Both the position numbers and the translations under genes were made by a program. Shown here one piece after another: positions 8,530 through 63,079 of a stretch of DNA of 64,000 bases; position 1 is the first letter of the stretch, and each line of letters opens with the position of its first letter. Below the pieces are notes generated by a model. It did not search any database. It had not been told where the DNA came from and saw nothing but the letters and a program-made list of their open reading frames with translations. Source of the DNA: Thermoplasmata archaeon (GTDB lineage Archaea > Thermoplasmatota > Thermoplasmata > Lutacidiplasmatales > UBA184); contig JASHPZ010000022.1 in the NCBI GenBank assembly GCA_030037815.1, forward strand, positions 1,782-65,781. Direction: 5' to 3'.

Positions 8530-9300
8530 ATGGGCGAGCTCGCGTTCGTCGGGCTCGGACTCGGCGACGAACGGGACTTGGGGGCCCGGGCCCTGGACGC
8601 CTTGCGCGCCTCGGGAGCGGTCTTCGCCGAAGAGTACACCGCGGTGGCCGCGCCCGGGGCGATCGACCGTCTCGCCCACGCGCTCGGCCATCCGATCCGC
8701 CGGCTCTCGCGGGCGGAGCTCGAGAGCGAGACCCCGATCCTAGACGCCCTTCGCGGACACGACCGGGTCGCACTCGTGGTCGTCGGGGACCCGTTCGCCG
8801 CGACCACTCACGTCAGCCTGCGCCTCGCCGCCGAACGGACCGGCCACACGTGGCGGTACTACCCGAACGCGAGCGTCCTCACCGCCGCCGCCGGGTTCCT
8901 CGGCCTAACGCCCTATCGGTTCGGCCGCACCGTCTCGCTGCCGTTCCCGGCGCCGGGGTTCCGACCTCGGTCGCCGTTCGACCGGATCGTCGAGAACCGC
9001 GAGCGCGGGCTCCACACGCTGGTCCTGCTCGACCTCGCGCCCGACGGGGGCCGATTCCTCACCGCGCACGACGGGCTCGCCGACCTGAGGGAGATGGACC
9101 CCGAGGCGGAGCGACTCCCCGAGCACGCGTTGGTCGCGGTCGTGGCCCGCCTGGGACGCGACGACGTCGCGGGGTACGTCGGGAGCTTCGGGGCGATGCG
9201 CGCGGCCGACTTCGGGCCGCCGCTCCACGCGATTGTCGTCCCGGCGCCCGACCTCCATTTCGAGGAAGAGGCCGCGCTGGCGCGCTTTCGGATCCCTTAG
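8530..9300 (+). CDS. dphB: Diphthine synthase (diphthamide biosynthesis methyltransferase, tetrapyrrole-methylase family).
   Basis: The N-terminus is MGELAFVGLGLGDERDL. The protein is 256 aa. This length and motif pattern are typical of archaeal Dph5. Confidence 0.85.
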   Translation: MGELAFVGLGLGDERDLGARALDALRASGAVFAEEYTAVAAPGAIDRLAHALGHPIRRLSRAELESETPILDALRGHDRVALVVVGDPFAATTHVSLRLAAERTGHTWRYYPNASVLTAAAGFLGLTPYRFGRTVSLPFPAPGFRPRSPFDRIVENRERGLHTLVLLDLAPDGGRFLTAHDGLADLREMDPEAERLPEHALVAVVARLGRDDVAGYVGSFGAMRAADFGPPLHAIVVPAPDLHFEEEAALARFRIP

Positions 9301-9719
9301 GGCGTCGGGCTGGGTCCGGTGCCCTCGAGCGGCGGGGGGGCGAGCGGCTTCAGCGTAAGCGCCTCCGCGAACTGGCGGATCCGGAACGGTCGCAGGAGCA
9401 GGACGTCCGGGGCCGCCTTCGCGTCGCCCGTGTGGGGCGGGGGCCGGGCCGCCGGCGCGACCAGGATGACCTTAAGTTGTGGGTCGACCGCGCGGGCCGC
9501 CGCGACCAGCGCGGCGCTGGTCCCTTCCGCCAGGTTGACGTCCGCGACCATCAATTTCGGGCGGTGCTCCCGCAAGAGCTGGAGGGCCTGGGTGGCCCCC
9601 TCGGCCTCCCCGTCGACCCGGAAGTGATGCAGCCGGAGCAGCCCGCGCAGAAGGACCCGCGTCTCCTCGTCTCCGGCGACGACAATGGCAGTGGCGGACG
9701 AACCGCTGGCGGCGCTCAG
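9297..9719 (-). CDS. Stand-alone CheY-like receiver-domain protein, possibly degenerate. The start codon is unresolved.
   Basis: The frame is open upstream to the stop shared with ORF 9840..11561. It encodes ...AIVVAGDEETRVLLRGLLRLHHFRVDGEAEGATQALQLLREHRPKLMVADVNL...QLKVILVAPA...LLLRPF. The receiver acidic pair and the phospho-acceptor Asp are present (LMVAD). The conserved Thr and Lys positions read Ala and Arg. No ATG/GTG/TTG precedes the receiver N-terminus; the nearest in-frame candidate is a CTG. Confidence 0.4.
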   Translation of the reverse strand: MSAASGSSATAIVVAGDEETRVLLRGLLRLHHFRVDGEAEGATQALQLLREHRPKLMVADVNLAEGTSAALVAAARAVDPQLKVILVAPAARPPPHTGDAKAAPDVLLLRPFRIRQFAEALTLKPLAPPPLEGTGPSPTP

Positions 9720-9802
9720 TGTGCCCTCTCCCCCCCGTAGGGAGTCGACCCGCGGTGGGTCGATGCCGAACGTAGCGTCGGGGCAGTATTTCGTTCTACG
9801 CC

Positions 9803-11371
9803 CTAGCCCGAAGCCGGGGCGGGGGCGTCCGGAGCCCGGTCACCCCACGCGACGACCCCCGCGGCCGAGAGGAGGTGGTCGAGCGCAGCGTGGTAGCCTT
9901 CCGGTGGGGCGGTGAGGAGGTCCCGGGCCCGGGCGGAGAGCGCCTGGCCGAACTCCTGCTCGGTCGGCGTGAACTGCCAGGCGTGGGCGGCCCCCCGTCC
10001 GAGCGCCACCAGGAAGCCGAACGCGAGCCCGCGCTCCTTTCCCTCGCGCGGCAGGGCCTGGAGGATCGTCCGCTCCGCCCCCGCCTCCTTCTGGACCCGG
10101 TACGTCCGCGCGATCCGGTCGGCCCACGCCGCCTCCGGGGCGAGGCGGGCGTACCGGGGCAGGGTGTCCAGGAGCTCCTGCTCGTCGCTCCGTTTCTGGA
10201 CCCGCTTGAGGATCTCCGCGACCCGCCCGGGGGCCCCGCGCGCCTCGTCGACCAGGCGCCGGACCTCCTCCGGGTCCCGCACGATCGCAGAGAGGATCTC
10301 CTCGGCGTGCTGGCCCCACAGCCGTTCGAGAGCCCGGCTCGCCGACGGCTCGTCGACCTCGAAGTACCCCGTCCAGTGACGGAAGACGCGGTCGAGCGCC
10401 CGCCGCTCCACCGGTGACGGCTGGAGCGCCGCGACGAACGCCTCCCGCCGGTCGCCGTAGCAGGTGCCGCCCGCCACGAACGTCGGGCGGTCCGGGCGTT
10501 CGATCCGGGGCTTCAGCTCGTTCAGGTAGGCGTCGAGCAGCTCCTCGTCGGACCGTCGTCCCGCCTCGTACGCCCGCACGAGCGCGCGGGGCAGCTCCGG
10601 GAGACGTCCGTGGACGCACTCGTCGCCGTCGGAGCACTTCACGTTGAGCGCGGCCGACACGGGGAACTCGGCCGCCGGGTCGGGCACGGCCACCCCGTCG
10701 GAGAGGTGGGAGAGGAGATGGCGGTCCCCCTTCGCGCACTTGCGGCAGACGCGATACACCTGGCCCGCGCCCGGCCAGCCGACCTCGAGGTACGGCCGGG
10801 GCTCGCCCGCCTGGAGGTGCGGGCAGAGGACCTGGCCGCGGGCGTCCGGGGGGCCCATCCGGTACGGCAGCTCGGCGAGCTTCTCCTGCACGAACTCGGA
10901 CGGCGGGCGGTCGGAGCGCCCGGTGCACCAGAGGGCGCGCCGGGTCGCGAAGAAGTGGAAGCCGCGGCGGCTCCAGTCGACGTAGCCGAGCAGGAGGCGG
11001 CTCGGGTCGTCCGACTGCTGGACGGCGACCTCCGCCTCGCGTTCCGTGCGGGCGAGGGCGGCGTACGACACGTCGCCCCCGGGGAGCGGGAAGCTCACGA
11101 TCGCGGGGGTGGTCGGGTCGAGCTGGAAGTGGAGGAGGCCCGCGTATGCGCGGGCGATCGCCTCGCCCCGTTTCGCGAGCCGCTCGAGCCGACTTTCGTC
11201 GTCCCGGTTCTCCCGCACCTCCTCGAGCTCGGCGCGCAGCCGGTCGAACCGGTCCCGCGGGCAGTCCGGGGTCAGCTTCGGGAGGAGCGGGTCGACCGAC
11301 TCCCGGAGCGCTTTCGCCCGCGAGATCAGGTCCTGGGACCGGATCCCGGAGCCCCGATGGACGCGCGGCAC
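9803..11371 (-). CDS. Hypothetical protein with a central Cys cluster (CPHL...RVCRKCAKGD...VKCSDGDECVHG), a putative zinc-ribbon.
   Basis: The ORF is 522 aa with protein-like composition. It runs co-directionally from guaAA after a 63-nt gap. I recognise no family. Confidence 0.5.
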   Translation of the reverse strand: MPRVHRGSGIRSQDLISRAKALRESVDPLLPKLTPDCPRDRFDRLRAELEEVRENRDDESRLERLAKRGEAIARAYAGLLHFQLDPTTPAIVSFPLPGGDVSYAALARTEREAEVAVQQSDDPSRLLLGYVDWSRRGFHFFATRRALWCTGRSDRPPSEFVQEKLAELPYRMGPPDARGQVLCPHLQAGEPRPYLEVGWPGAGQVYRVCRKCAKGDRHLLSHLSDGVAVPDPAAEFPVSAALNVKCSDGDECVHGRLPELPRALVRAYEAGRRSDEELLDAYLNELKPRIERPDRPTFVAGGTCYGDRREAFVAALQPSPVERRALDRVFRHWTGYFEVDEPSASRALERLWGQHAEEILSAIVRDPEEVRRLVDEARGAPGRVAEILKRVQKRSDEQELLDTLPRYARLAPEAAWADRIARTYRVQKEAGAERTILQALPREGKERGLAFGFLVALGRGAAHAWQFTPTEQEFGQALSARARDLLTAPPEGYHAALDHLLSAAGVVAWGDRAPDAPAPASG

Positions 11372-11434
11372 TTCCGGAACCTCGGGCCGCCGAACGGGCG
11401 GCCCTACATATTTCGGACTCCCGTCCGGGGCCGT

Positions 11435-11998
11435 CTAGCGGTGGCAGGCGTCCAGGAACCGGCGGAAGAACTCCCGGCCTCCCTCGGTGTGCTCGACCTC
11501 GGGGTGGAACTGGACGCCCCAGATCGGGCGGTCCGGGTGCGCCATCGCCTCGACCGGGCACGACGGCGAATGGGCGAGGACCGACCAGCCCGGGGGGGCG
11601 GTCGCGACCTGGTCGTTGTGGTTCCCCCAGACGCGGAAGGCGGGCGGGGTCCCGGCGAACAGCGGGTGGTCCCGACGGTCAACGGTCAACTCGACCGAGC
11701 CGAACTCGGCCCCGCCGTGGACGACCTTCCCTCCGAAGTGCCGGCCGAGGAACTGGTGCCCGACGCAGATGGCGAAGACGGGGAACGGCGCGCGGTCGAT
11801 CCACTCCCCGACCTGCCCCAAGGGGGTGTCGGTCCCTTCGAGGCTCAGCGCGCCGCCGGAGAGGACGACCCCGTCCGCGTCCAGCTGTTCGAACGGGGTG
11901 GTGTTCGGCACGATCCGGGTCTCCGCGCCCAGGTCCCGGAGCACCCGCCACTCGCGGTGGGTCCACTGGCCGCCGTTGTCGATGACGGGGACCTTCAC
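11435..11998 (-). CDS. guaAA: GMP synthase, glutamine amidotransferase subunit A (archaeal split GuaA).
   Basis: The N-terminus is MKVPVIDNGGQWTHREWRVLRDLGAE. Class I GATase motifs are present (ICVGHQF, HPE). The protein is 187 aa. The GTG start overlaps the upstream stop as GTGA. Confidence 0.85.
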   Translation of the reverse strand: MKVPVIDNGGQWTHREWRVLRDLGAETRIVPNTTPFEQLDADGVVLSGGALSLEGTDTPLGQVGEWIDRAPFPVFAICVGHQFLGRHFGGKVVHGGAEFGSVELTVDRRDHPLFAGTPPAFRVWGNHNDQVATAPPGWSVLAHSPSCPVEAMAHPDRPIWGVQFHPEVEHTEGGREFFRRFLDACHR

Positions 11999-12345
11999 GG
12001 CGCGCCCCCCTTCGGCCGGTTCGGCGGGTCGCGGCCGCCCGCGTCCAGCGCCTCGAGCCGCCGCCGCATCTCGGTGACGTCCGACCGCATCCGGAGCATC
12101 TCCTCCTCGAACGGGGAGAACCCGGACGGGGTCAGGAGCCGGTGGGAGAGGTAGATCCCGACGAAGATCGCCCCGACCAGGGCGAGGATCGTCGTGAAGA
12201 CGAGCGCGAAGACGAACGCGAGCGGGTCGGCGAGCGCCGTCGAGATCGGGAGGGTGAACAGGTGCGTGATCTCGGCGACCTCGATCACGATCAGGATCGC
12301 GATGACGAGGACCCAGACGAGGAACCCGAGCCGGTTCGCCTTCAC
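11995..12345 (-). CDS. Small membrane protein: two TM helices with a C-terminal cytoplasmic coiled-coil tail.
   Basis: A GTG start inside ORF 11995..12627 gives VKANRLGFLVWVLVIAILIVIEV...LVGAIFVGIYLSHRLL...EEEMLRMRSDVTEMRRRLEALD. The first 90 aa of the listed ORF are Arg-rich junk. The start overlaps the upstream stop as GTGA. Confidence 0.5.
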   Translation of the reverse strand: MKANRLGFLVWVLVIAILIVIEVAEITHLFTLPISTALADPLAFVFALVFTTILALVGAIFVGIYLSHRLLTPSGFSPFEEEMLRMRSDVTEMRRRLEALDAGGRDPPNRPKGGAP

Positions 12346-12896
12346 GGCAGCGGTCCTCCCGCGTTCGGCTCGAGCAGGATCGCGAGCGGTAGGCTCGAGA
12401 CCGCCACGGAGGAGGCGGCCGAGATGCCGGACGTCGCGGGGCTGACCGCGATGTTGAGCGTCTCGCCCGCCTGGCCGATCGCGCTCACGTAGAAGGCGAA
12501 CACGCCCGAGTACGTCGTGGTCGCCCCGTTGTCGGTGTACGTCGCGGAGGCGTAGACGGCGACCGGGTTGTAGAGCGAGAAGAGCACGCTCGCCAGCACG
12601 TTGGACGAGTTCTGCCAGTCGGTCCACGCGAGGTGGTCGGTCGGAAAGCCGCCCGACCAGACGAACCCGTAGGCGACGGCCGTCGAGATCGCGTCGAAGC
12701 GGACGGTCGCCCCCACGGCGTGCACGTAGAAGTTGGTCGTGTTGCCGCCCGCGACGCGGTCGACCACGAGCTCGGCCTGCGCCAAGTACGGGCTCGGGCC
12801 GTTCGAGATCAGGACGGGGGTGAGGACGATCAGCCCGACCAGGAGGAGCGCGACGCCGACCAGCGGCCAGGGAAACAGCGCACCGAGCCGATTCAC
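12342..12896 (-). CDS. Hypothetical secreted or membrane-anchored protein (N-terminal TM or signal anchor, Thr/Ser/Ala-rich ectodomain).
   Basis: The GTG start overlaps the UbiX stop. The N-terminus is VNRLGALFPWPLVGVALLLVGLIVLTPVL. It is followed by ...NTTNFYVHAVGATVRFDAIS...YTDNGATTTYSG.... Confidence 0.45.
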   Translation of the reverse strand: MNRLGALFPWPLVGVALLLVGLIVLTPVLISNGPSPYLAQAELVVDRVAGGNTTNFYVHAVGATVRFDAISTAVAYGFVWSGGFPTDHLAWTDWQNSSNVLASVLFSLYNPVAVYASATYTDNGATTTYSGVFAFYVSAIGQAGETLNIAVSPATSGISAASSVAVSSLPLAILLEPNAGGPLP

Positions 12897-13543
12897 GTCG
12901 CCTCCGACCCCCAGCCCCGGTAGAGGGTGTGGGGGACGCCGAGGTGGTCGAGGACCTTCCCCGCGAGGTAGTTCGTCACGTCGTCGATCGTCTTCGGGTG
13001 CAGGTAGTACGCGGGCGACGCCACGAGCACCACGGTCCCGAGGTCGCTCAGCGTCGCGAGGTGCCGCAAGAGCACGGCGGAGAGCGGCGTTTCGCGGGGA
13101 ACGACGACAAGGGGACGGCGTTCCTTCAGGTGGACCTGGGCGGCCCGCGTGAGCAGCGAGTCGCCGAGGCCGAGCGCCACCTTCGCCGCGGTGTTCGCGC
13201 TGCACGGCACGACCACCATCGCGCGGGTGGGGAACGATCCGCTCGCGATCGGGGCCGCGAGGTCGGCGTCGGAGTAGGCGCGGTCGGCGTACTGCGCGAG
13301 GGTGTCGGGGGCGAGTCCCGCCTCTTCCTGCAGCACCGCGCGCGCGCCGTTCGACACGACCAGCGCGACCGGTACGCGCGCGGCGCGCAGCGACTCGAGG
13401 ACCCGCACCGCGATGGGCGCCCCGCTCGCGCCCGACACGCCGACCACGACGGGAGGTTCGTTCGGCACGAGGGGAACCCCGGAGTTAAGTGCCCCAACGA
13501 CTCGTTCGATAAGACGGTTGGCGGAGCGCGGACGGTGGGGCAT
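12893..13543 (-). CDS. ubiX: Flavin prenyltransferase UbiX/PAD1 family.
   Basis: The C-terminal 216 aa of ORF 12893..14389 carry VVVGVSGASGAPIAVRVLESL and ...MVVVPCSANTAAKVALGLGDSLLTRAA. An alternative GTG start near 13468 would remove the overlap with the divergent thiolase start. Confidence 0.8.
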   Translation of the reverse strand: MPHRPRSANRLIERVVGALNSGVPLVPNEPPVVVGVSGASGAPIAVRVLESLRAARVPVALVVSNGARAVLQEEAGLAPDTLAQYADRAYSDADLAAPIASGSFPTRAMVVVPCSANTAAKVALGLGDSLLTRAAQVHLKERRPLVVVPRETPLSAVLLRHLATLSDLGTVVLVASPAYYLHPKTIDDVTNYLAGKVLDHLGVPHTLYRGWGSEAT

Positions 13544-14698
13544 CGGGCGGCGATCATCGGCGCGGGTCACACCCGATTCGGGGCCATGCCCGACGGGCCC
13601 CGGAGCCTCCTGCGCAGCGCCGTCGACCAGGCGTTCCAGAGCGTTGACCGCGGGCTCGACCGCGCGTCGGTCACGGACGCGTACCTCGCGAGCCTCGGGT
13701 TTGGCGGCTGGCAGATCGGGAACGCGTCGACCGTGATGGCCGAGGAGGCCGGGCTGACCGGCGTGCCGACGGTCCGGGTCGAGAACGCCTGCGCCTCGGG
13801 CGGGTTCGCGCTCCGCGCCGCGGTGAACGCGGTGCGCTCGGGCGCGACCGCGCTCGCGCTGGTCGTCGGGCTCGAGAAGATGACCGACCAGCCGGCGGCC
13901 CGCCGTCGGTACTGGCTCGGCGTCTCGGGCGACACCGAGTGGGAGCGGCTCGCGGGACTCACGTTCGCCGGCGTCTACGGGCTGATCGCCGCGCGGTACC
14001 TGGCCGAGCACCACGTCGGCCGCGAGGCGCTCAGCGAAGTCGCGCGGAAGAATCACGAGAACGGCGCCCTCAACCCCAACGCCCACTTCCAGAAGCGGGT
14101 CACCCGCGAAGACGTCGAGCGGGCGGCGAAGGTCGCGTCCCCCCTCGGCCTCTACGACTGTTGCCCGGTGAGCGACGGCGCGGCGGCGCTCTTGGTGGCC
14201 CCCGCCGAGGCGGCGCGGCAGTACACCGACACTCCCGTGTACGTCGACGGGATGGGCGCGGGCTCCGACTACCTCGCCGTGCAGGAGCGGGCCGACCTCA
14301 CGCGGTTCGCCGCGACGCGCTGGGCGATGGACGGGGCCCTCCACGAAGCGGGGGTCTCCCGCGGCGCGATCTCCTTCCTCGAGGTCCACGACTGCTTCAC
14401 GATCGCCGAGCTCCTCGCGCTCGAGGACTTGGGGTTCGCGGAACCGGGCGCGGCCGGGCCGCTCACGCTCTCCGGAGCCACGGCCCGGACCGGGCGGCTA
14501 CCGGTCAACCCCGACGGCGGGCTGAAGGCGAAAGGCCACCCGATCGGCGCGACGGGTGTCTCCCAGGCGTACGAAGTGTTCCAGCAGCTCCGACGCGCCG
14601 CCGGCGCGCGCCAGGTGCCGGGCGCCGAGCGGGCCCTCACCCACAACGTGGGCGGCGCCGGTGCGACCGCCTCGGTCGCCGTCTACTCGGTGGGGTGA
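13535..14698 (+). CDS. Thiolase-family protein (acetyl-CoA C-acetyltransferase-like; archaeal thiolase that pairs with a DUF35 protein).
   Basis: The N-terminus is GHRAAIIGAGHTRFG. The active-site region is VENACASGGFALRAA, and the C-terminal thiolase region includes ...GHPIGATGVSQ. The GTG start is inferred from the conserved N-terminus. Confidence 0.8.
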   Translation: MGHRAAIIGAGHTRFGAMPDGPRSLLRSAVDQAFQSVDRGLDRASVTDAYLASLGFGGWQIGNASTVMAEEAGLTGVPTVRVENACASGGFALRAAVNAVRSGATALALVVGLEKMTDQPAARRRYWLGVSGDTEWERLAGLTFAGVYGLIAARYLAEHHVGREALSEVARKNHENGALNPNAHFQKRVTREDVERAAKVASPLGLYDCCPVSDGAAALLVAPAEAARQYTDTPVYVDGMGAGSDYLAVQERADLTRFAATRWAMDGALHEAGVSRGAISFLEVHDCFTIAELLALEDLGFAEPGAAGPLTLSGATARTGRLPVNPDGGLKAKGHPIGATGVSQAYEVFQQLRRAAGARQVPGAERALTHNVGGAGATASVAVYSVG

Positions 14699-15711
14699 CG
14701 GGCGTGGGCTGGGTCGAGGCCACGGCGTACCTGCCGCGCGGCCGAGTCGGCGGCCGCCGCCGCGCCGGCCCCGACGAGGACCCGTTCACGCTCGCCGCCA
14801 CCGTCCTCGAACGGCTTGCGGAGACGGTCCCCGAAGGAACCGAGGCGGCCACGGTATGGCTGCTCGGCGCCGCTGCGAGCGGACGCGACGAGCTCCTCGC
14901 GGCGCTGTTCGACCGCGTCCCGCGATTCGAGCGCCCGGCGCACGACGACCTGGCCGCGACCCTTCGCGCGGCGGCGTCCCGGCCCGCCGAGATACACCTG
15001 GTCGTGACGGCGACCGTGGACCCGGACTCACCCGCCGCAACCCCCGGCGACGCGGCCGCGGGGTTCCTCTACCGGCCGGGATCCGACGGGGGTCCCCTCG
15101 ACCCCGGGACCGCGCCGTCGGGCTCCAGTGTGGGCGACGCGTGGGCCCTGTACGCTCAGAGCGCAGCGGCTCCACCCGCCGGCGTGCGCTGGACGGGAGA
15201 CTGGGACGCGGGCCCCGGGTCCGCGCTCGCGGTCGACCGCTCCGGTCTCCGACGTCCCGCGGACTCGCTGACGTTCGCCGTCTCCGAGGGCGCCTACGTC
15301 CCCCGCGCCCGGTACCTCGAGGGCCTCCCCAGCCGCTGGCGGCTCCGCGCGGTCTCGTGCGGCGCGTGCGGCACGACCACGTTTCCAGCGCGCGAGGTCT
15401 GTCGGGGGTGCGGGGCCCGCACCGGCCTCTCTCCCGTGTCGCTCCCGCGGGACGGAGGCGTCGTGCTCGCCGTGACCGAGATCGGCAAGGGCGGGCAGCC
15501 CACGGAGTTCGACTACTGGGTCGACCGGGTGGGGCCGTACGGGGTCGCGCTGGTCGAACTCGTTCCGGGAGTCCGCGCCACCCTCCAGATCGCGGACGCC
15601 CCCGCGGGGTCGGTCCGCATCGGCGACCGCGTCGGCACCCGCCTCCGTCGCCTGTACCCGATGGAGGGCGAGTGGCGGTATGGCCGGAAGGCCGTGCCGC
15701 TCCCCGCCTAG
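14695..15711 (+). CDS. DUF35 OB-fold/zinc-ribbon protein fused to a degenerate, Cys-less HMG-CoA-synthase-like N-terminal region.
   Basis: The GTG start overlaps the thiolase stop (GTGA). The N-terminus GVGWVEATAYLPRGRV...EDPFTLAATVLERLAE...VWLLGAAASGRD resembles the HMGCS N-terminus (VGI.gyGAYIPryRI...ED..tMA..AA..lle...lxVGTES..D). It lacks the ACYGGT catalytic Cys. The C-terminus carries CGACGTTTFPAREVCRGCG plus a DUF35 OB-fold. Confidence 0.65.
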   Translation: MTGVGWVEATAYLPRGRVGGRRRAGPDEDPFTLAATVLERLAETVPEGTEAATVWLLGAAASGRDELLAALFDRVPRFERPAHDDLAATLRAAASRPAEIHLVVTATVDPDSPAATPGDAAAGFLYRPGSDGGPLDPGTAPSGSSVGDAWALYAQSAAAPPAGVRWTGDWDAGPGSALAVDRSGLRRPADSLTFAVSEGAYVPRARYLEGLPSRWRLRAVSCGACGTTTFPAREVCRGCGARTGLSPVSLPRDGGVVLAVTEIGKGGQPTEFDYWVDRVGPYGVALVELVPGVRATLQIADAPAGSVRIGDRVGTRLRRLYPMEGEWRYGRKAVPLPA

Positions 15712-17477
15712 CCCGGTCCTTTCTTCGCCGGTTCCCACGGCGCGCCGAGCCAGCTCGCGTAGACCTTCTTCGCAAGTTCGTCCGGGGCGTCCACCGGCGT
15801 GAACCGGTACTTCTCGGCGGGCGGCTTCCCCGTCGTCAGCGAGACGGTGCGGAGGAACCCCCGACGGAACAGCGTCAGGTCGATGGCGGTGCCCGGCGGG
15901 GTCGCCTGCATCATCTTGTCGAGGCCCGAATACGTCACCTTCGAGCCGTTCAGCGCCACGAGCTCGTCGCCGGGCGAGATCCCGGCCCGGCGACCGGGGG
16001 TGTCCGCGAGGACGACGCGGACCCGGGCGAGTCCGCCCGCGTCCTCGCACCGGATCCCGAGGTACCCGGGTTCGTCGGACGGGTCGTCGGGGTCGCGGGG
16101 CTTCGCCCCGACGTGGAGCCCCGCGTACTGGGCGAACCCGTCGAGGTCGAGCTCCTCCGTCCCCCGCACGAATCGGTCGAAGAACGGGCCCAGGTCGAGC
16201 CCGGTCGCGGCCTCGATCGCCGGCTGGAGTTCCTCCTCGCCGACCCCCTGGTCGAGCTTCCCGAAGTTCTGCCAGAGGTACCGCATCGCCGTCTCGAGCG
16301 ACTTCGCCGTCTCGGTGCGGTGCCGGACCTCGAGGTCGAGCGCCATCGAGACGAGCGCCCCCTTGAGGTAGTAGCTGATCGACTGGTTCGGGGTCTCCTC
16401 GTACGGCTGGTAGTAGTCGACCCAGGAGAGGAACGACGACTCCTCGAGGCTCTGGCGCCGGCGTCCGGGCGTCGCCTCGAACTCCTTCACCTCCTCGGCC
16501 ATGCGGTCGAGGAATTGGGGGACGGTGAGGAGGCCCGCCCGCCGCAGGACGAGGTCGGAGAAGTAGTCGGTCGTCCCCTCCATCCACCACAGGAGCCGCG
16601 TGTACATCTCGCGGGTGTAGTCGAACGGCACGATCGCCTTCGGCCGGACCCGCTTCACGTTGTAGAGGTGGAAGTACTCGTGGCTCTCGAGCCCGAGGAA
16701 CCGCCGGTACATCTCGCCCGGTTGGAAGGCGAGCCGCCGGACGACGGCGGAGTGCGAGGTGGCGTGCTCGAGGCCGCCGTCGGGCACGTCCGTCAGGTGG
16801 AGGAAGAAGGTGTACCCGGCGAGCGGCGAGTCGCCCAGCATCTGGACGGTGGCGGTGACCAGCTTCCCGAGGTCCTCCTCGAGCCGATGGGTCTCGTAGT
16901 TCCCGCCCTGTCCGCAGAGCACGATCCGGTGGGGGATCCCGAGCGGACGGATCGTCAGCACCGTGGGATGGCCCGCGTCGATCGGGCTGTCGACCAGCTC
17001 GTCGTAGTTGCGCGCCCGGTACGTCGGCGGATGCCCGGTGACCTCCTCGAGCTCGCTGACGCTCTTCCAGGAGGGGGGCAGGTGGAGCGTGACCTCCGCC
17101 GGCTCGGAGGTCCGTCCCTCCACGTACGGGAGGCAGAGCGCGGCGTTGAGGAACAGGTGCTCGGAGGTGAAGTCGAACGCCTCGGTCACGAGGTCGTGGC
17201 CGTAGACGCTGTACTCGATGTGGACCGCGGGCGCCCCGTCCGTGTGGACCCGCCACCGCGCCTTGTCGACCCGCTCGACGTTCAACGGTCGGTTCGTCGC
17301 CGGGTCCCGCGCGCGCATGTCGCGGAACCCCCGCACGTAGTTCACGATGTGATACGACCCCGGGACCCACGACGGGAGGACGAGGTCGACGGTCGGGGCG
17401 ACGCCTTCGAGGTCGAGGGTGAAGCGGGCCCGGTGCTCTTCCGGGTCGACCGCGCGGACCGAGTAGCGGACCGTCAT
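15708..17477 (-). CDS. M61 family glycyl aminopeptidase with a C-terminal PDZ domain.
   Basis: The HEYFHLYNVKRVRP HExxH zinc motif sits in an M61-like context. The protein is 589 aa with a C-terminal PDZ-like segment. It converges on the DUF35 gene with a CTAG stop overlap. Confidence 0.8.
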   Translation of the reverse strand: MTVRYSVRAVDPEEHRARFTLDLEGVAPTVDLVLPSWVPGSYHIVNYVRGFRDMRARDPATNRPLNVERVDKARWRVHTDGAPAVHIEYSVYGHDLVTEAFDFTSEHLFLNAALCLPYVEGRTSEPAEVTLHLPPSWKSVSELEEVTGHPPTYRARNYDELVDSPIDAGHPTVLTIRPLGIPHRIVLCGQGGNYETHRLEEDLGKLVTATVQMLGDSPLAGYTFFLHLTDVPDGGLEHATSHSAVVRRLAFQPGEMYRRFLGLESHEYFHLYNVKRVRPKAIVPFDYTREMYTRLLWWMEGTTDYFSDLVLRRAGLLTVPQFLDRMAEEVKEFEATPGRRRQSLEESSFLSWVDYYQPYEETPNQSISYYLKGALVSMALDLEVRHRTETAKSLETAMRYLWQNFGKLDQGVGEEELQPAIEAATGLDLGPFFDRFVRGTEELDLDGFAQYAGLHVGAKPRDPDDPSDEPGYLGIRCEDAGGLARVRVVLADTPGRRAGISPGDELVALNGSKVTYSGLDKMMQATPPGTAIDLTLFRRGFLRTVSLTTGKPPAEKYRFTPVDAPDELAKKVYASWLGAPWEPAKKGPG

Positions 17478-17482
17478 CGGGC

Positions 17483-17704
17483 CTACGCGAACCCGGGCGG
17501 GTCGGAGGCGCGGCCGCTGGACCCCTTCCGCTGGTACGGCTCCGCGGCGATCCCGAGGTGGGTCGCGAGCGAGCGGAAGGTGGTGACCAACTGATTGATC
17601 GCCTGCGCCATCTCCCGCTGCTCGGTCCGTAGCTCCTGGAGCTCCTCGCGCAACGCGCGGAGCTCGGCCTCCCAGTGGGCCTCTCGGGAATCGTCGGTCC
17701 CCAT
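17483..17704 (-). CDS. Small coiled-coil hypothetical protein.
   Basis: The ORF is 73 aa and lies 5 nt upstream of the M61 peptidase gene. It has heptad-like content (ELRALREELQELRTEQREMAQ). Confidence 0.3.
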   Translation of the reverse strand: MGTDDSREAHWEAELRALREELQELRTEQREMAQAINQLVTTFRSLATHLGIAAEPYQRKGSSGRASDPPGFA

Positions 17705-17803
17705 CCTCGCCTCGGCTGCCCAGAAGCGATGCGGCGGATTAGGTGTGCGCGGAACCGGGGCGGCTCACCGCGCGTGCGCGAACTTCAAGTAGGTGTATCG
17801 GTT

Positions 17804-17817
17804 TTCCGATATCGGAA
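17804..17817. promoter_or_regulatory. Perfect 14-bp palindrome TTCCGATATCGGAA with flanking ATCGG/CCGAT half-sites, a candidate PadR operator.
   Basis: Read directly from the sequence at about 17795-17830. It overlaps the first ATG of listed ORF 17793, which argues for the downstream ATG (17823) as the true start. Confidence 0.45.
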
Positions 17818-17822
17818 TACCG

Positions 17823-18245
17823 ATGTCGGCGTGGGGTGCTCCGTGGGTGTCGCGCAAGAAGCGAGGGTTGCGATCGTGGGTGCTCGTCATCCTCTCCCGT
17901 TCTCCCCGGACGGGGGCGGAGGTGATGGACGAGATGGAGCGGATGTCGTCCGGCTGGTGGCGGCCGTCTCCCGGCTCGGTGTATCCGCTGCTCGATGAGC
18001 TCACGCGGGAAGGGGTCACGCGGCGACGGGAGGACGGGCGCTTCGAGCTCATCGACTCCGGCATGAGCGGGGGCTCCTGGCACTTCGGGGCGCCGGGACC
18101 GCGGAGCGCGGCGGACGCGGTCCGCGAGCTCGGCGCGTTGACCGCCTATCTCGAGGACCTCGGGCGGGCCGACCCGAAGGCGCTCGGCGACACGCTCCCC
18201 GCGCTCCGCGCGACGGTCGAACGCCTTACAAGGCTGGCCCAGTGA
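17823..18245 (+). CDS. PadR-family transcriptional regulator.
   Basis: A winged-helix PadR signature is present (...GAEVMDEMERMSSGWWRPSPGSVYPLLDELTREGV...). It lies upstream of the ABC transporter, in the classic PadR-ABC arrangement. The second ATG was chosen because of the operator palindrome. Confidence 0.72.
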   Translation: MSAWGAPWVSRKKRGLRSWVLVILSRSPRTGAEVMDEMERMSSGWWRPSPGSVYPLLDELTREGVTRRREDGRFELIDSGMSGGSWHFGAPGPRSAADAVRELGALTAYLEDLGRADPKALGDTLPALRATVERLTRLAQ

Positions 18246-19276
18246 GGGGGTCGATGACGAGCACGGAAGCGATCCAGGTCACCGGCCTCTCCAAGACGTA
18301 CAACCAGACGGTGAAGGCCGTCGACCAGATCGCGTTCTCCGTCCACCCCGGCGAGGCGTTCGGGTTCCTCGGGCCGAACGGGGCGGGGAAGACCACGACC
18401 GTCGCGATGCTGACCGGACTTCTGCGGCCGACCGCGGGGACCGCGATCGTCGACGGGGTCGACGTCTTCGCGAACCCGACGCTCGTCAAGAAGAAGATCG
18501 GGCTCGTCTTCCAGGAGTCGACCGCCGACTCCGACCTCTCCGGACGCGAGAACCTCGAGCTCGCCGCGGCGCTGTTCGATGTCCCCCGAAGCGAGACCCG
18601 CGCGCGGGTCGACGGGCTTCTCGAGCGGATGCAGATCGGCGACGCCGCCGACCGCCTCACGAAGACGTACTCGGGCGGGATGCGCCGACGCCTCGAGCTC
18701 GCCGTCGGGATCATCCACTCGCCGGCCGTCCTGTTCCTCGACGAGCCGACGCTCGGCCTCGACCCGCAGGGCCGCGCCGGGTTCTGGCGGTACGTCCAGG
18801 AGCTCCGGAAGGAGCACGGGATGACCGTCTTCCTGACGACCCACTACCTCGACGAGGCGGACGGGATCTGCGACCGCCTCGCGATCATCGACCACGGCCA
18901 CATCGTCGCCACCGGTACCCCCTCCGAGCTGAAGGACCGCGTCGGCGGCGACGTCGTCACGATCCGACCGGCCCAGCCCGACCCGAAGGTCGAGACGGTC
19001 CTGGCCGCCGTCCCCGGTGTCCTGTCGGTCACCCCGCAGGACGGCGCCTACCGCGTGAAGTGTCCGAAGGGCGACGCCCTGATCCCCGTCCTGGTCGAGG
19101 CGTGCTACAAGGCCGGCTTCGGCCTCTCGGGCGTGTCGCTGAAGCGCCCGAGCCTGGACGAGGTGTTCCTCGAGTTCACCGGCCGCGAGTTCCGCGAGGA
19201 CGAGGGGGCGAGCGCGACCGACCGGGCGGTGCGGATCGGTCAGGTCGCCCAGGCGTTCGGGAGGGGCCGGCGATGA
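18242..19276 (+). CDS. ABC transporter ATP-binding protein (ABC-2/DrrA-like exporter ATPase).
   Basis: Walker A is GPNGAGKTT. The signature is YSGGMRRRL. Walker B is LFLDEPTLGLD. The H-loop is TTHYL. The start overlaps the PadR stop as GTGA. Confidence 0.9.
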   Translation: MRGSMTSTEAIQVTGLSKTYNQTVKAVDQIAFSVHPGEAFGFLGPNGAGKTTTVAMLTGLLRPTAGTAIVDGVDVFANPTLVKKKIGLVFQESTADSDLSGRENLELAAALFDVPRSETRARVDGLLERMQIGDAADRLTKTYSGGMRRRLELAVGIIHSPAVLFLDEPTLGLDPQGRAGFWRYVQELRKEHGMTVFLTTHYLDEADGICDRLAIIDHGHIVATGTPSELKDRVGGDVVTIRPAQPDPKVETVLAAVPGVLSVTPQDGAYRVKCPKGDALIPVLVEACYKAGFGLSGVSLKRPSLDEVFLEFTGREFREDEGASATDRAVRIGQVAQAFGRGRR

Positions 19277-20079
19277 TGCGCCAGCTGGTCGCCCTCACCC
19301 GTCGCGAGCTCCTGCGAATCGCCCGGAACCCCCAGGCGATCATCACGTCCTTGATGCTGCCGATCCTGTACCTCTTGCTGTTCGGCCAGGGGTTCAACTT
19401 CCCCTACCCGTCGTCCGACATCTCGGGCGCGCCGAACTACTTCAGCTACTTCGCGGCGGGAATGGCCGGGTTCGTGGCGGTCACCGCGACCCTCTTCCTT
19501 GGGGCGAACGTGATCTTCGACCGGCTGTTCGGTGTCCTGAAGCGGAACTCCGCGACCCCCGCCAGCGCGACTTCGATCTTCTCCTCCCGGCTCCTCGCCG
19601 GGTCGGTCCAGCCGATCGGGCTCGCGTTCCTGGTCCTCGGCCTCGCGGCGCTGCTCGGCCACCTCGGCCTCGCCGGCCTGACCGTGACCGCCTCGCTCGG
19701 CGTGGTCGGCGCGATCGAGATCGTCGCCGCGATCATCATCCTCTCCCTGATGTTCGCGTCCCTGTTCCTCGCGATCGGCTTCTCGCTGCAGCAGCCGCAG
19801 ACGTACTTCGCGGTCGTGAACGCGATCAACCTGCCGGTGCTCCTCACGTCGGCCGCGCTCTACCCGTTCGGGCGGCTGCCGTGGTGGCTCAAGAACATCG
19901 CGTCGTACAACCCGGTCACGCTCGCGGTGGAGGTGATCCGGCTCAACCTGTTCGCCGGGTCCGGCAGCTACTACACGTACACCGCGGGCGTCTACCTCGC
20001 CGGGCTCGGCGCGTGGGCCGTCGCGATGTTCGTGCTGGCCGTCCTGCTCGCGCGGCGCGCGCTCGCCCCGGCCAAGTAG
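19273..20079 (+). CDS. ABC-2 type transporter permease.
   Basis: ATGA overlap with the ATPase stop. The protein begins MMRQLVALTRRELLRIARNPQAII and has six predicted TM segments. Confidence 0.8.
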   Translation: MMRQLVALTRRELLRIARNPQAIITSLMLPILYLLLFGQGFNFPYPSSDISGAPNYFSYFAAGMAGFVAVTATLFLGANVIFDRLFGVLKRNSATPASATSIFSSRLLAGSVQPIGLAFLVLGLAALLGHLGLAGLTVTASLGVVGAIEIVAAIIILSLMFASLFLAIGFSLQQPQTYFAVVNAINLPVLLTSAALYPFGRLPWWLKNIASYNPVTLAVEVIRLNLFAGSGSYYTYTAGVYLAGLGAWAVAMFVLAVLLARRALAPAK

Positions 20080-20101
20080 GGGGCGCCGCGCGGACCTGGG
20101 C

Positions 20102-20611
20102 CTACGGGCGGCCGCCGTCGACCGCGCCCTTCTCGACGAACGGGCGCCACGCCTTCGCGTCGGCCGCGTAGTCGACCCGCTGGAGCTCGACCACGAACTC
20201 CTTCAAGAGCTCCGCCGGGCCCGGACGGACCGAGATCGTGTAGACGTAGATGCCGAACCCCATGAACTCTGTCACGCGGGCCAGGAGCGCTGGGAGGTCC
20301 GCGCGGGGGACCGTGACCCGGATCGACGTCTGGCCGAGCAGCGACGAGAACTCGTCCAGGTCGAACGGTCGTTCGAACGTGATCAGGGACGGCGGAGCGC
20401 CCGCCGGGCCCGCGGTTGGGAGCGGGGTCGCCGTCGGCGCGGGGGCGGAGGTCACGACGACCCGTCGGGGGGTCCCGAAGCCGGGGTCCTTCGGCGGGTA
20501 CTTCTCGAGCACCGGTGAGCCGTCGCGTCCGACAAACCCCTTCGTAGCCCGGGCGCGCGCGCGCGGCGCGGGTCGCTTCGGCGCGGAACGCTTCGACGGT
20601 CGCTTCGCCAT
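20102..20611 (-). CDS. Hypothetical protein with a basic N-terminus (MAKRPSKRSAPKRP...) and a conserved-looking C-terminal domain.
   Basis: Only the C-terminal 169 aa of ORF 20102..22318 have protein-like composition. That region includes ...LITFERPFDLDEFSSLLGQTSIRVTVP...FGIYVYTISVRPGPAELLKEF.... The rest is antisense to the radical-SAM gene. Confidence 0.45.
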   Translation of the reverse strand: MAKRPSKRSAPKRPAPRARARATKGFVGRDGSPVLEKYPPKDPGFGTPRRVVVTSAPAPTATPLPTAGPAGAPPSLITFERPFDLDEFSSLLGQTSIRVTVPRADLPALLARVTEFMGFGIYVYTISVRPGPAELLKEFVVELQRVDYAADAKAWRPFVEKGAVDGGRP

Positions 20612-20845
20612 GCGGGCGCCGGAAGGCGCTCGGTCCATAAGGGTTCGGCGCGCTCCCGCCGCAATCTCGGGCGCGGAAATTCGGCGATATACGGCGCTTG
20701 TAGCGAAGCGGACCGTGCGACTCCACGTCACGGTCCCGTCGGTTTGTCGCGTCCCCGACGACAGATGGATTATGTAGGTAGGGGTGGGTGGGCCGTGTAA
20801 GGCTCCGACCGGAACGGGACGGAGTCCAAGGAATGAGGTAAGAAC

Positions 20846-22555
20846 ATGCCGGCCCGTGTCATGAAGGACTTTCAGGCGCCCCGGGGACTGCCGCGCAAGA
20901 CCGCCTCGGTCTGCCCCGAGTGCATCAAGGTGATCCCGGCGGTCGTCCGCGAGAAGGACGGCCGGGTCATCATGGAGAAGACGTGCCGCTCGCACGGCTA
21001 CTTCTGGGACATCATCTCGAACGACGTCGACTTCTACCTCCGCATGGAGGTCTACGCGCACGACGGCGTCGGCTACGAGAACCCGTACTACGACAAGTTC
21101 ATCGGCTGCCCGACGACGTGCGGGATGTGCAGCCACCACAAGTCGCACACCGGCCTCGCGCTGGTCGACCTGACCAACCGCTGCAACCTGAAGTGCCCGG
21201 TCTGTTTCGCGAACGCCAACGCGGCCGGCTACGTCTTCGAGCCGACCCGCGAGCAGATCCACTTCATGCTGAAGACCCTCCGGGAGCAGAAGCCGGTGGG
21301 GACGGTCGCGGTCCAGTTCTCGGGCGGCGAGCCGACCCTCTCTCCGCTCTTCCTGGACGCGGTCTCGATGGCCCGTGACCTGGGCTTCAAGCAGGTCCAG
21401 GTCGCGACCAACGGGATCCGGGTCGCGAACGAGCCCGGCTTCGCCCAGCAGTGCCGGGACTCGGGGCTCCACACGCTCTACCTCCAGTTCGATGGCCTGG
21501 ACGAGGAGATCTACCGGAAGGTCCGTGGCGTGCCGCTCCTCAAGGTGAAGCAGAAGGCGATCCAGGCGGCGCGCGAGACCCACTCGCCGGCGACCGAGCT
21601 CGCCGCGGGGAAGCCCGACAAGCCGCTCTCGGTCGTGCTCGTCCCGACGCTGGTCGGCGGGTTCAACGAGAAGGAGATCTGGCCGACGGTGAAGTTCGCG
21701 ATCGACAACATCGACGTCGTCCGCGGCGTCAACTTCCAGCCGGTCGCCCTGACCGCGCGGATCCCCGACAAGGACCGGTTCCAGATGCGGTTCACCCAGT
21801 CGGACCTCGTCCGGATCCTCTGCACGGAGGGCCCGTTCGACAAGTCGGACTTCTTCCCGGTGCCGTCGGTCGCTCCGATCTCGGAGCTCGTGTCGATCAT
21901 CCACGGCGAGGAGAAGATGACCCTCACGACCCACCCCGGCTGCGGGTGCGCGACGTTCGCCTTCATCTCGAAGGACGGGCAGAAGATCACCCCGCTGCCG
22001 CGGTTCATGGACGTCGACGGGTTCTTCGAGAACGTCGAGTCGATGATCGAGAAGTACCGGGACGCGCGGTTCGCGCGGGTCCGGACGGCCGTCGCGGGCG
22101 CCCGCCTGCTCCACGACGTCGCGAAGTATTTCGACTTCTCGAAGGCGCCGGAAGGCCTGAACGAGAAGAACTGCGTCAAGGTGATTGCGGGGATCTTCAC
22201 CGAGGGCAACAAGGAGGCGCTCGCGAAGTTCACGTGGCGCACGCTCTACATCGGGAACATGCACTTCCAGGACGCGTACGACTACGACATCCAGCGCCTG
22301 ATGCGCTGCGATATCCACTACGCGGTTCCGGACGGGCGCGTCATCCCGTTCTGCTCGTACAACTCGGGCCCGATCTACCGGACGGAGGTCGAGCAGAAGT
22401 TCTCGATCCCGATCCCGGACTGGCAGGCCGCGAAGCGCTCCGGCGGCACCCCGCTCAAGACCATCGAGACGATGGGCGTGAACGGCGAGGTCGTCGTGGA
22501 CGCCGAGTACTACAAGATCCGGGCGCTCAAGGGCGCGCCGGGCATGTCGACCTAA
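20846..22555 (+). CDS. Large radical SAM enzyme with an N-terminal Cys4/rubredoxin-like ribbon and extra C-terminal Cys motifs. It may be a tetraether lipid synthase (Tes/GDGT-MAS)-like enzyme.
   Basis: CNLKCPVCF is the CxxxCxxC radical-SAM cluster motif. The N-terminus has CPECIKV...KTCRSHG. The C-terminus has HPGCGCATF and RCDIHY...FCSYNSG. The protein is 569 aa. A GAGGT ribosome-binding site lies 7 nt upstream of the ATG. Confidence 0.8.
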   Translation: MPARVMKDFQAPRGLPRKTASVCPECIKVIPAVVREKDGRVIMEKTCRSHGYFWDIISNDVDFYLRMEVYAHDGVGYENPYYDKFIGCPTTCGMCSHHKSHTGLALVDLTNRCNLKCPVCFANANAAGYVFEPTREQIHFMLKTLREQKPVGTVAVQFSGGEPTLSPLFLDAVSMARDLGFKQVQVATNGIRVANEPGFAQQCRDSGLHTLYLQFDGLDEEIYRKVRGVPLLKVKQKAIQAARETHSPATELAAGKPDKPLSVVLVPTLVGGFNEKEIWPTVKFAIDNIDVVRGVNFQPVALTARIPDKDRFQMRFTQSDLVRILCTEGPFDKSDFFPVPSVAPISELVSIIHGEEKMTLTTHPGCGCATFAFISKDGQKITPLPRFMDVDGFFENVESMIEKYRDARFARVRTAVAGARLLHDVAKYFDFSKAPEGLNEKNCVKVIAGIFTEGNKEALAKFTWRTLYIGNMHFQDAYDYDIQRLMRCDIHYAVPDGRVIPFCSYNSGPIYRTEVEQKFSIPIPDWQAAKRSGGTPLKTIETMGVNGEVVVDAEYYKIRALKGAPGMST

Positions 22556-31029: not shown

Positions 31030-31484
31030 ACCGAGTTCCGCTAGTTTGTGCCCAGCCTATCGGAGCTATGGAAGCGCGAGCCGACCCCAGTCCGTTGGTA
31101 AAGTTAGACCATTTGCGTCCTCCTTACGGTTGAACTGCAGAAGTTTGCCTAACGTCATGGCCGAATGGACCGCCAGATGCCGATGCTCAGAGACCTCCCG
31201 ATGCTCGGGCCACGGGTGTGACAGGCATACAATTCAGAGGATCGACCTTAGCGGCAGGTTGTCCGTTCGACCCTCCCAATGCATCTCAGGTGGCCCTCGG
31301 CTGCTACTTCGGAATCCTGCACCGCAGGGCATGAGTTCCCCGCGCGTGCGCCTGCGAGAAGACAGCGGTCGGAATCGAGTCGGCATATTCCTTAGCGAGC
31401 CCCGGGTAGTTGCGGGAGCACCGGGCCGCAAGGCCTCCTTGAGCTCAGTGTCCGTTCATGAACCGGAACGTGGTGGAACCCACC

Positions 31485-32264: not shown

Positions 32265-32280
32265 GAACTCAATGACCTTT

Positions 32281-33357: not shown

Positions 33358-33367
33358 ATCCTCTGAC

Positions 33368-37018: not shown

Positions 37019-37168
37019 GAGCCCCGAAACCCCAAGACGCGCATCTACGTAGACTTACCGACGTCGACGTCGGGTCTCCCCTGTGAACTACATGAGCTGC
37101 CCCTCGGAACCGGAGGGTGGGCGCCCCGCAATGGGGGCCGCGGGTAGACGCGCCGCTCTGCCTGTTTG

Positions 37169-37513: not shown

Positions 37514-37550
37514 TGGTAATCTCTCAGAGTCACCCCATAGATGAACATTT

Positions 37551-38957: not shown

Positions 38958-39067
38958 TAAAATCCCAAAGCCGGAGCCGCGGATGCGGGGGCGTCGCGCG
39001 CTCGTCGCCATCCGTACGGATCGACCCGAGCGGGGCCGCGTCCGCCGGGCCGTCCGTCTCTCGGGCG

Positions 39068-63005: not shown

Positions 63006-63079
63006 TGCCGCGGGCCGGGCTTGAACCGGCGGCTTCAAGATCTTCAGTCTTGCACTCTCCCAAACTGAGTTACCGCGGC
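63006..63079 (-). tRNA. tRNA-Phe (anticodon GAA); no CCA is encoded.
   Basis: The minus-strand read is GCCGCGGTAACTCAGTTTGGGAGAGTGCAAGACTGAAGATCTTGAAGCCGCCGGTTCAAGCCCGGCCCGCGGCA. The acceptor stem is GCCGCGG/CCGCGGC. The anticodon loop is CTGAAGA. The T-loop is GGTTCAAGCC. Coordinates are approximate by 1-2 nt. Confidence 0.8.

Follow-up and report, generated by a model that had tools for sequence, protein, structure and literature searches.

A 64,000-nucleotide stretch of contig JASHPZ010000022.1, from the Thermoplasmata archaeon assembly GCA_030037815.1, was analyzed. This whole stretch is called the window. Its G+C content is 72%, and its gene content and closest homologues pointed to uncultured Thermoplasmata. 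The subject here is a thiolase gene and the open reading frame (ORF) that follows it. The product of this ORF, designated X, joins a DUF35 module to a domain related to hydroxymethylglutaryl-CoA (HMG-CoA) synthase, abbreviated HMGCS (HMGS in the names of related domains). The thiolase and X genes together are called locus B, and locus A denotes an HMGCS-thiolase-DUF35 operon. The features of locus B are as follows.

13535..14698, + strand: SCP2-type archaeal thiolase, putative catalytic subunit, 387 aa; Pfam Thiolase_N and Thiolase_C_1, NCBIfam PRK06064 (420.7 bits)
14695..15711, + strand: X, a fusion of a pseudo-HMGCS (N-terminal half) with DUF35; 338 aa plus stop, GTG start
14695..15093, + strand: X residues 1-133, remnant of the thiolase-fold N-terminal half of HMGCS, with the strand-helix pattern b-a-b-a-b-a-b-b
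15094..15279, + strand: X residues 134-195, fast-evolving connector in place of the entire C-terminal half of HMGCS, from alignments
15280..15708, + strand: X residues 196-338, DUF35 module, from Pfam, PDB profile and Foldseek

The GTG start of X shares the sequence GTGA with the TGA stop of the thiolase gene. The ORF and this overlap had been described in an earlier interpretation made from the nucleotide sequence (the sequence-only reading), and both were confirmed. The same interpretation had placed a DUF35 protein, with a zinc ribbon and an OB fold, at the C-terminus of X, and Pfam, PDB profile and structural searches agreed on this. The module consists of a conserved VSEGAYVPRxRYLExLPSRWR lead-in, a Cys4 zinc ribbon, an OB fold with GGQPTEFD and a C-terminal RLRRLYPMEGEWRYGRKAVP motif. 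The ribbon cysteines, C222, C225, C236 and C239 (nt 15358-15411), were invariant in 120 aligned sequences.

Pfam matched zf-ChsH2 (PF12172) at residues 216-242 with 30 bits (cutoff 23.2). The match to OB_ChsH2_C (PF01796) at 279-313 scored 23.4 bits, slightly below its cutoff of 27.1. The OB fold was backed by a match of the family profile (positions 218-342) to the DUF35 chain 6esq_E (E=2.4e-14). In Foldseek, the top PDB matches of the X model were DUF35 chains, with PhlB first, together with 6ESQ E-G, MucABC (MucC-type), BbsA and ChsH2-DUF35 (1e-10 to 1e-6). The target-normalised TM-scores against solved DUF35 chains were 0.7-0.84.

AlphaFold2, supplied with an alignment of 120 sequences, gave a model of X with a mean pLDDT (predicted local distance difference test) of 91.1 and a pTM (predicted template modelling score) of 0.90, without any low-confidence segment. 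Residues 1-128 formed the b-a-b-a-b-a-b-b unit, and pLDDT was above 90 over most of the N-domain. The connector (pLDDT 71-94) contained a single helix at 145-156 and a conserved W(V/T)GDW at 166-170 (nt 15190-15204).

After the DUF35 chains, the next block of Foldseek matches consisted exclusively of HMG-CoA synthases: MvaS 5HWP (1.6e-5), PksG, S. aureus and E. faecalis MvaS, CurD and Brassica HMGS, each over 165-178 columns. FabH and thiolases ranked later. The N-terminal region was thus folded, and its best thiolase-fold matches were HMGCS, which refuted a disordered extension. The family profile also matched PDB sequences of MvaS (1.5e-4; profile 8-136 against chain 35-174) and PhlA (5.5e-3).

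All three N-terminal motifs that the sequence-only reading had compared with HMGCS did align with it. AYLPRGRV of X corresponded to SYIPKYRI, PDEDPFTLAATVLERL to PDEDTATIAVEAARNA, and VWLLGAAAS to VYVGSESH. The conserved PDEDxFT motif of X occupies residues 26-32, with DED at nt 14773-14781. Compared with M. thermolithotrophicus HMGCS (6esq_I), X retained the N-terminal strand and the PDEDxxT motif, and lacked the 22-residue insert that follows the first strand. Residues 1-133 were the sole part of X alignable to HMGCS, covering approximately residues 1-170 of the enzyme.

Pfam and NCBIfam found nothing in residues 1-215 of X, and in its longer relatives they likewise found the DUF35 parts only. 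None of the curated HMGCS models (Pfam HMG_CoA_synt and ACP_syn_III, NCBIfam TIGR00748 / NF003274) matched X. Because the direct profile similarity was weak, HMGCS ancestry was argued through intermediates and structure. By hhalign, the N-domain of X (1-133) matched the N-region (1-157) of longer relatives, the long forms described below, at 98.3% (E=1.3e-14). The long forms in turn matched a 103-sequence alignment of true HMGCS at 100% (E=5.6e-40). The alignments and the model together indicate that the N-domain of X is of common ancestry with the N-terminal half of HMGCS.

The catalytic tetrad of HMGCS is Glu-Cys-His-Asn (E82, C114, H238 and N270 in the M. thermolithotrophicus enzyme). The Glu sits in the GSES motif and not in DED. 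In X this position is occupied by Ala (GAAA). The first Cys of X is C222, in the zinc ribbon, so the claim of the sequence-only reading that no Cys precedes the ribbon held; nothing Cys-like was seen at the nucleophile position. The C-terminal half of HMGCS, with the catalytic His and Asn, was missing. The region before DUF35 measured approximately 195 aa in X and 350 aa in archaeal HMGCS, in agreement with the claimed shortfall of about 150 aa.

The loss extended through the family. The N-domain was free of Cys in 100 of the 120 aligned members, and at every N-domain column Cys occurred in less than 5% of sequences. X would therefore be unable to make HMG-CoA; we call it dead for the loss of residues needed by all characterized HMGCS.

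A search of approximately 5.8 billion proteins returned more than 400 homologues of X in which the full-length architecture was kept. The best 120 were nearly all 320-370 aa long, mostly with more than 90% query coverage and approximately 45-52% identity. The named ones came from metagenome-assembled genomes (MAGs) of Thermoplasmata, including Ca. Lutacidiplasmatales. An exhaustive profile search of 1.84 billion representatives gave 1077 proteins at E<=1e-3, 180 of them at E<=1e-30. Members of the family, in their hundreds, belong to uncultured Thermoplasmata of high G+C. Conserved elements in the N-terminal 195 residues were AAYxP, PDEDxFTLAATAxER, LxG, LLG, GAGAVAF and WVGDW.

The longer relatives were of two kinds. 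The long forms (455-496 aa) carried a complete HMGS-like domain, with an N region of approximately 320-340 aa, fused to DUF35. One of them, P0242, matched PhlA best in the PDB (4e-21), 6esq_I HMGCS over almost its full length (5.5e-16) and the DUF35 chain 6esq_E (2.7e-17). The long forms lacked both Glu and Cys, and had Asp at the catalytic Asn position, like PhlA and MucA. The intermediates (417-509 aa) had a short N-terminus as in X and kept part of the HMGCS C-terminal half, to graded extents.

A hidden Markov model (HMM) of the N-domain only matched the N-termini of the intermediates at 1e-28 to 1e-11 and those of the long forms at 1e-10 to 1e-3 (Z=1e6), all in register. Among the ORFs of the window, it matched X alone. 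The 509-aa relative P0235 had a neighbourhood identical to that of X (Kdp ATPase, Usp, diphthine synthase, GATase, UbiX, thiolase, X, radical SAM). The shrinkage therefore took place in situ, within one orthologous locus.

A full-length dead HMGS-DUF35 long form, P0269 (476 aa), was also seen after an active thiolase at L009:8747-11431, under the JGI name 'HMG-CoA synthase'. Genes for a Pup ligase and a proteasomal-type AAA ATPase on the same contig hint at a bacterial host. From this context, the module of a thiolase and a dead HMGS-DUF35 would not be limited to archaea.

The thiolase of locus B appeared intact. It carries NACASG (residue 84, nt 13784-13801), HDCF (residue 285, nt 14387-14398) and GHPIG (residue 334, nt 14534-14548), and its PDB matches were 7yvy, 4yzo and 6esq_A. 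In all loci examined (L001, L003-L009, L134), a thiolase gene lay directly upstream of the X-family gene, overlapping it or separated by a few bp. The X-paired thiolases kept NACASG, HDCF and GHP at every one of these loci. In a neighbour-joining tree, the thiolases paired with short, intermediate and long forms made up a clade of their own, all active by motif. The operon thiolases grouped with 6esq_A, and the Cys-less ones among them formed a derived subclade. The flanks (±10 kb) of six family members contained no HMGCS.

The gene order around locus B (window 8530-22555) was kept at L001, L003-L008 and L134, although the X proteins there share only about 45-50% identity with X of the window. 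The order is diphthine synthase, an unknown 520-aa protein, a GATase (GMP synthase subunit A-like), two small ORFs, UbiX, thiolase, X, an M61 peptidase and a radical SAM protein with a Zn ribbon. In relatives, Kdp and Usp genes also lie upstream of this conserved block from diphthine synthase to radical SAM.

In related genomes, a separate locus carried the true HMGCS. A DNA pattern for DFWR...FHxPN in G+C-rich codons was run against one genome per GTDB species. The scan returned 120 loci, and a bona fide archaeal-type HMGCS was present in 120/120; 19 were from Thermoplasmata, many of them with approximately 70% G+C. In the Thermoplasmata loci, HMGCS was the first gene of a canonical HMGCS-thiolase-DUF35 operon (locus A). 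It carried GSES, FACKAG, FHQPNG and GNTYS, and scored above the NCBIfam equivalog cutoffs (533.8 and 521.7 bits for the HMGCS of L130).

Loci A and B were both present in assembly GCA_022749935.1, with the HMGCS operon on JAKIWQ010000005.1 and thiolase-X on JAKIWQ010000013.1. They were also both present in GCA_035623855.1 / ERZ27251322, as the adjacent protein accessions HXY46580.1 and HXY46867.1 in one ENA assembly. A third HMGCS/X pair from the same genome is suggested by HTP55410.1 and HTP56111.1. A six-frame search of the 64-kb window with a real archaeal HMGCS as query gave no match.

The thiolase of locus A was the closest relative of 6esq_A (359 bits, compared with 223 bits for the window thiolase). 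It has V/IEGGGASG where 6esq_A has VEAACASG, and GRP in place of GHx. The nucleophilic Cys and one catalytic His thus appear to be lost, and on these residues the enzyme would be dead. A Cys-less operon thiolase was found in 16 of the 17 sampled Thermoplasmata operons. The Cys, HDxF and GHP motifs were kept in 59 sampled operon thiolases, all except L080 from outside Thermoplasmata. The Thermoplasmata operon thiolase appears to be a selected pseudo-thiolase. Absence of the catalytic motif from many archaeal paralogues of AACT was described by Hoshino and Gaucher (2018).

The Cys-less Thermoplasmata genes are at L130:7056-8225, L133:4056-5225, L010, L016, L017, L022, L035 and L036, and further at L046, L053, L055, L066, L090, L100, L121 and L129. 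They have EGGGASG or EGGGACG for EAACASG, and the His of GHP is also gone (GRP or GQP) except at one locus. Cys-less genes also lie beside archaeal-type HMGCS in Chloroflexota MAGs (L025, L028, L047, L061, L071, L076, L083, L099, L105, L115, L120, L124), and Cys-less thiolase-like genes beside HMGCS in uncultured Halobacteriales (L043, L084). The motif in these two groups is EAADASG or EAAGASG. GHP is kept in both Halobacteriales genes and replaced by GNP, GFP, GDP or GAP in Chloroflexota. Overall, 30 of the 88 sampled HMGCS operons had a Cys-less thiolase, in several lineages, and catalytic death of the operon thiolase therefore seems to be recurrent.

Between two MAGs, HMGCS was 84% identical, the dead thiolase 80% and the active thiolase 73%. 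In X, the DUF35 part was 65% identical and the N-domain 30%. The dead thiolase is strongly constrained, to judge from the 80% identity. The HMGS stub appears to be the least constrained part of X, and is still predicted to fold. Among the best 120 cluster representatives, the true HMGCS of Thermoplasmata (P0275-P0394) were 85-96% identical, compared with only about 45% for the X-DUF35 family in the same lineages.

DUF35 proteins bind SCP2-type thiolases in 6ESQ, BbsAB, Ltp2-ChsH2 and Saci_1121/1120. By analogy with such characterized thiolase/DUF35 assemblies, the DUF35 module of X would clamp the upstream thiolase. We interpreted X as a non-catalytic partner of this thiolase, composed of a DUF35 scaffold and a dead, half-sized HMGCS remnant, with the real HMGCS encoded at a second locus in relatives. 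We put the probability of this interpretation at approximately 0.75. The sequence-only reading had proposed a pseudo-enzyme remnant retained in a scaffold; the fold, the profile links to HMGCS and the missing catalytic residues bore out the remnant, and the scaffold role is a presumption.

The interpretation was built on homology, on the loss of catalytic residues, on conserved gene neighbours and synteny, and on two MAGs in which both loci occur. We infer from these a physical complex of thiolase and X, the direction of flux, and a locus A in the window's own organism. An HMG-CoA synthase would have been fused to DUF35, would have lost its Glu and Cys, and would later have been trimmed to its thiolase-fold N-terminal half. 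Most likely, this half persists for its structure, packing against both the DUF35 module and the thiolase. The model (pTM 0.90) predicts a fixed orientation of the half-HMGS domain relative to the DUF35 module on which it packs.

At locus B, the thiolase alone would be catalytic, interconverting 2 acetyl-CoA and acetoacetyl-CoA. With the HMGCS-linked thiolase dead in relatives, the thiolase paired with X would be the best candidate for supplying acetoacetyl-CoA. Locus A would then turn acetoacetyl-CoA into HMG-CoA for the mevalonate pathway, if flux runs in this direction. The ancestral thiolase/HMGCS/DUF35 complex seems, from these sequences, to exist as two complementary half-dead copies.

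A stronger version is a tentative one, to which we give somewhat less than even odds. A large uncultured Thermoplasmata clade would have split the channelling complex into two obligately complementary half-dead complexes, mevalonate entry would need both, and the half-HMGCS stub may dock them. If true, the split would be a natural case of duplication-degeneration-complementation in a multi-enzyme channelling machine.

The closest systems for comparison share parts of this arrangement. The 6ESQ complex likewise combines an SCP2-type thiolase, an HMGCS-type thiolase-fold domain and a Zn-ribbon/OB DUF35. In sequence, 6esq_E is the closest match to the DUF35 module of X (2.4e-14), and the partner thiolase of X matches 6esq_A. 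Unlike in 6ESQ, the HMGCS part of X is fused to DUF35 and lacks the Glu, the Cys and the C-terminal half, leaving no second active site and no complete fused CoA-binding site. The partner thiolase is also a paralogue, as seen from its lower score.

PfACAT/HMGS-DUF35 of P. fluorescens (Nat Commun 2026, PMC12960953), in which ACAT is the acetyl-CoA acetyltransferase, has an inactive fused HMGS; the complex cleaves acetoacetyl-CoA only and makes no HMG-CoA. As at locus B, its HMGS-like domain lies N-terminal to DUF35, the E-C-H-N tetrad is lost, and the adjacent ACAT has Cys, HDxF and GHx. The long forms (455-496 aa), linked to the X family by profile comparison, have this same architecture. On the other hand, the bacterial protein and the long forms have a full-length HMGS fold, whereas X has the N-terminal half minus the 22-aa insert. 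X is also archaeal, and its lineage has in addition a real HMGCS operon with a dead thiolase.

In PhlA/PhlB/PhlC (PpATase) and MucA/MucC/MucB, a dead HMGS-like subunit (PhlA, MucA) and DUF35 are likewise structural partners of a Cys-bearing thiolase-like subunit. MucB, the ACAT unit of MucABC, was insoluble alone, and catalysis by MucABC needed the full assembly (PMC12960953). Unlike locus B, these complexes are made of three separate full-length proteins, and their thiolase-like subunit, which lacks HDxF, performs Friedel-Crafts C-acylation in secondary metabolism. The locus B thiolase has an intact HDCF, and its gene does not lie in a biosynthetic cluster.

BbsAB benzoylsuccinyl-CoA thiolase (7PXP), Saci_1121/1120 and Ltp2-ChsH2(DUF35) (6OK1) also have DUF35 encoded beside an SCP2-type thiolase-fold protein. 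There, an alpha2-beta2-type assembly either requires DUF35 or contains it in bound form, and DUF35 may be fused to another domain (the ChsH2 hydratase). The S. acidocaldarius thiolase (Saci) was soluble only if co-expressed with its DUF35 (bioRxiv 10.1101/2024.07.05.601840). Unlike X, none of them has an HMGCS-derived domain on DUF35.

Other explanations of locus B were considered. X might bridge one mixed super-complex, in which its half-HMGCS pairs with either partner from locus A, the real HMGCS or the dead thiolase, so that channelling is kept across the products of the two loci. The X model does retain the third strand and third helix of the thiolase-fold N-terminal half, which belong to the dimer interface. 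Both dead partners are under selection (as in the 80% identity of the dead thiolase), loci A and B co-occur, and channelling is the accepted rationale for the thiolase/HMGCS/DUF35 complex. However, the N-domain is the fastest-evolving part of X (30% identity), which is hard to square with a specific interface to an HMGCS conserved at 84-96%. In the canonical complex, every thiolase cleft reportedly faces an HMGCS held via its own DUF35, which also counted against bridging. We consider bridging quite improbable. It is unlikely, to a lesser degree, that locus B is a catabolic or mevalonate-independent complex for thiolysis of acetoacetyl-CoA or short acyl-CoA, like the 'evolutionary intermediate' of P. 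fluorescens, with another thiolase feeding HMGCS. The P. fluorescens complex gave thiolytic cleavage only, in vitro. The locus B thiolases form a clade apart from those of the mevalonate complex and reach bacteria-like contexts (L009, with its Pup ligase neighbour), and no other mevalonate genes lie near locus B. Yet some thiolase must feed HMGCS in the genomes examined, where the HMGCS-linked one is dead, and locus B is the obvious conserved candidate; the other thiolase-like gene of the window is Cys-less too. Thiolases are moreover reversible, and the direction seen in vitro does not settle the role in vivo.

Two further explanations were rejected. The N-domain could be an active divergent HMGCS, or the ORF a frameshift or assembly artefact masking a full HMGCS, as might be thought from the JGI pipeline naming some longer relatives 'hydroxymethylglutaryl-CoA synthase' and from the position of the X gene, which matches that of HMGCS-like genes in related operons. 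We gave this hardly any weight. Activity was ruled out by the absence of Glu and Cys, the deletion of the His/Asn half and the bona fide HMGCS elsewhere in relatives. An artefact, which the sequence-only reading had considered, was ruled out by the length kept in more than 100 homologues from independent assemblies and by the six-frame search, in which no hidden HMGCS was found in any frame of the window. The other rejected explanation, an N-terminal extension that is unrelated or disordered and resembles HMGCS by chance, had in its favour the blank Pfam/NCBIfam result over 1-215 and a direct hhalign probability of just 55%. Its likelihood is next to nil, and it was ruled out by the high pLDDT, the HMGCS-specific Foldseek and PDB profile matches, the in-register intermediates and the longer positional orthologue.

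Several points weigh against the interpretation of X as a dead partner of the upstream thiolase. The thiolase/X complex is itself a prediction from sequence. Dividing the active sites between complexes would abolish substrate channelling, the presumed point of the archaeal complex. The P. fluorescens analogue was only thiolytic in vitro, which leaves room for a catabolic locus B. With identities of 30-37%, the N-domain is changing quickly and may have no more than a minimal role. When hhalign compared the N-domain directly with the alignment of 103 true HMGCS, the match was weak (55%, P=1.2e-4, 56 columns). Locus A of the window's organism was not found in the 64-kb window searched, and the picture of two loci is carried over from two or three relatives, whose X proteins share 45-50% identity with that of the window.

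Dead HMGS-like subunits (PhlA, MucA), and a dead HMGS-DUF35 beside an active ACAT, were already known in bacteria (PMC12960953, January 2026). New here is a truncated, half-sized archaeal derivative with a traceable reduction series, which lacks the full-length HMGS fold of the known kind. Our literature searches found no description of this truncated archaeal form or of the Cys-less operon thiolases of Thermoplasmata.

The reciprocal arrangement of pseudoenzymes is of most interest. Many Thermoplasmata of soils and sediments have one copy whose HMGCS half was cut down to a fused stub, and in relatives it is the thiolase half that died in the other copy. This suggested that either enzymatic subunit can persist with a structural role only. 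By channelling into HMGCS, the DUF35-scaffolded thiolase/HMGCS complex presumably pulls the endergonic thiolase step forward. Whether channelling is dispensable, what minimal piece of HMGCS a thiolase/DUF35 requires and whether pseudoenzymes join both complexes become testable questions. Annotation is also affected: X-type proteins are now called 'OB-fold protein', 'hypothetical' or, wrongly, 'HMG-CoA synthase', and Cys-less operon thiolases are labelled acetyl-CoA acetyltransferases.

Outside locus B, the following features were identified in the window.

60459-61880, + strand: second thiolase-like gene, PRK06365 family (613.8 bits, cutoff 695), separate from the locus B system
61880-62407, + strand: second DUF35, its start in an ATGA overlap with the thiolase-like gene
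33368-35623, - strand: 750-aa protein with two HATPase_c-type domains, in a low-G+C island
35624-37018, - strand: Eco57I-like type II methyltransferase, in the low-G+C island
37551-38957, + strand: DDE transposase with a SWIM finger, in the low-G+C island
63006-63079, - strand: tRNA-Phe (GAA)

The pair at 60459-62407 had been described in the sequence-only reading as a conventional thiolase/DUF35 pair. The pair exists, but it is not conventional, as the catalytic Cys is absent. The 60459-61880 product has a K/R-rich N-terminal extension, and IEWGGATGG at residue 107 replaces the Cys motif. By sequence, it may be an aldolase-like or structural thiolase-fold protein and not a thiolase.

The low-G+C island spans approximately 30000-39000 of the window, with 57-58% G+C compared with 72%, and contains four ORFs without a family match. 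Probably, this is a restriction-modification or defence island gained by horizontal transfer. The tRNA-Phe gene was the sole Rfam or ARAGORN match in the window.

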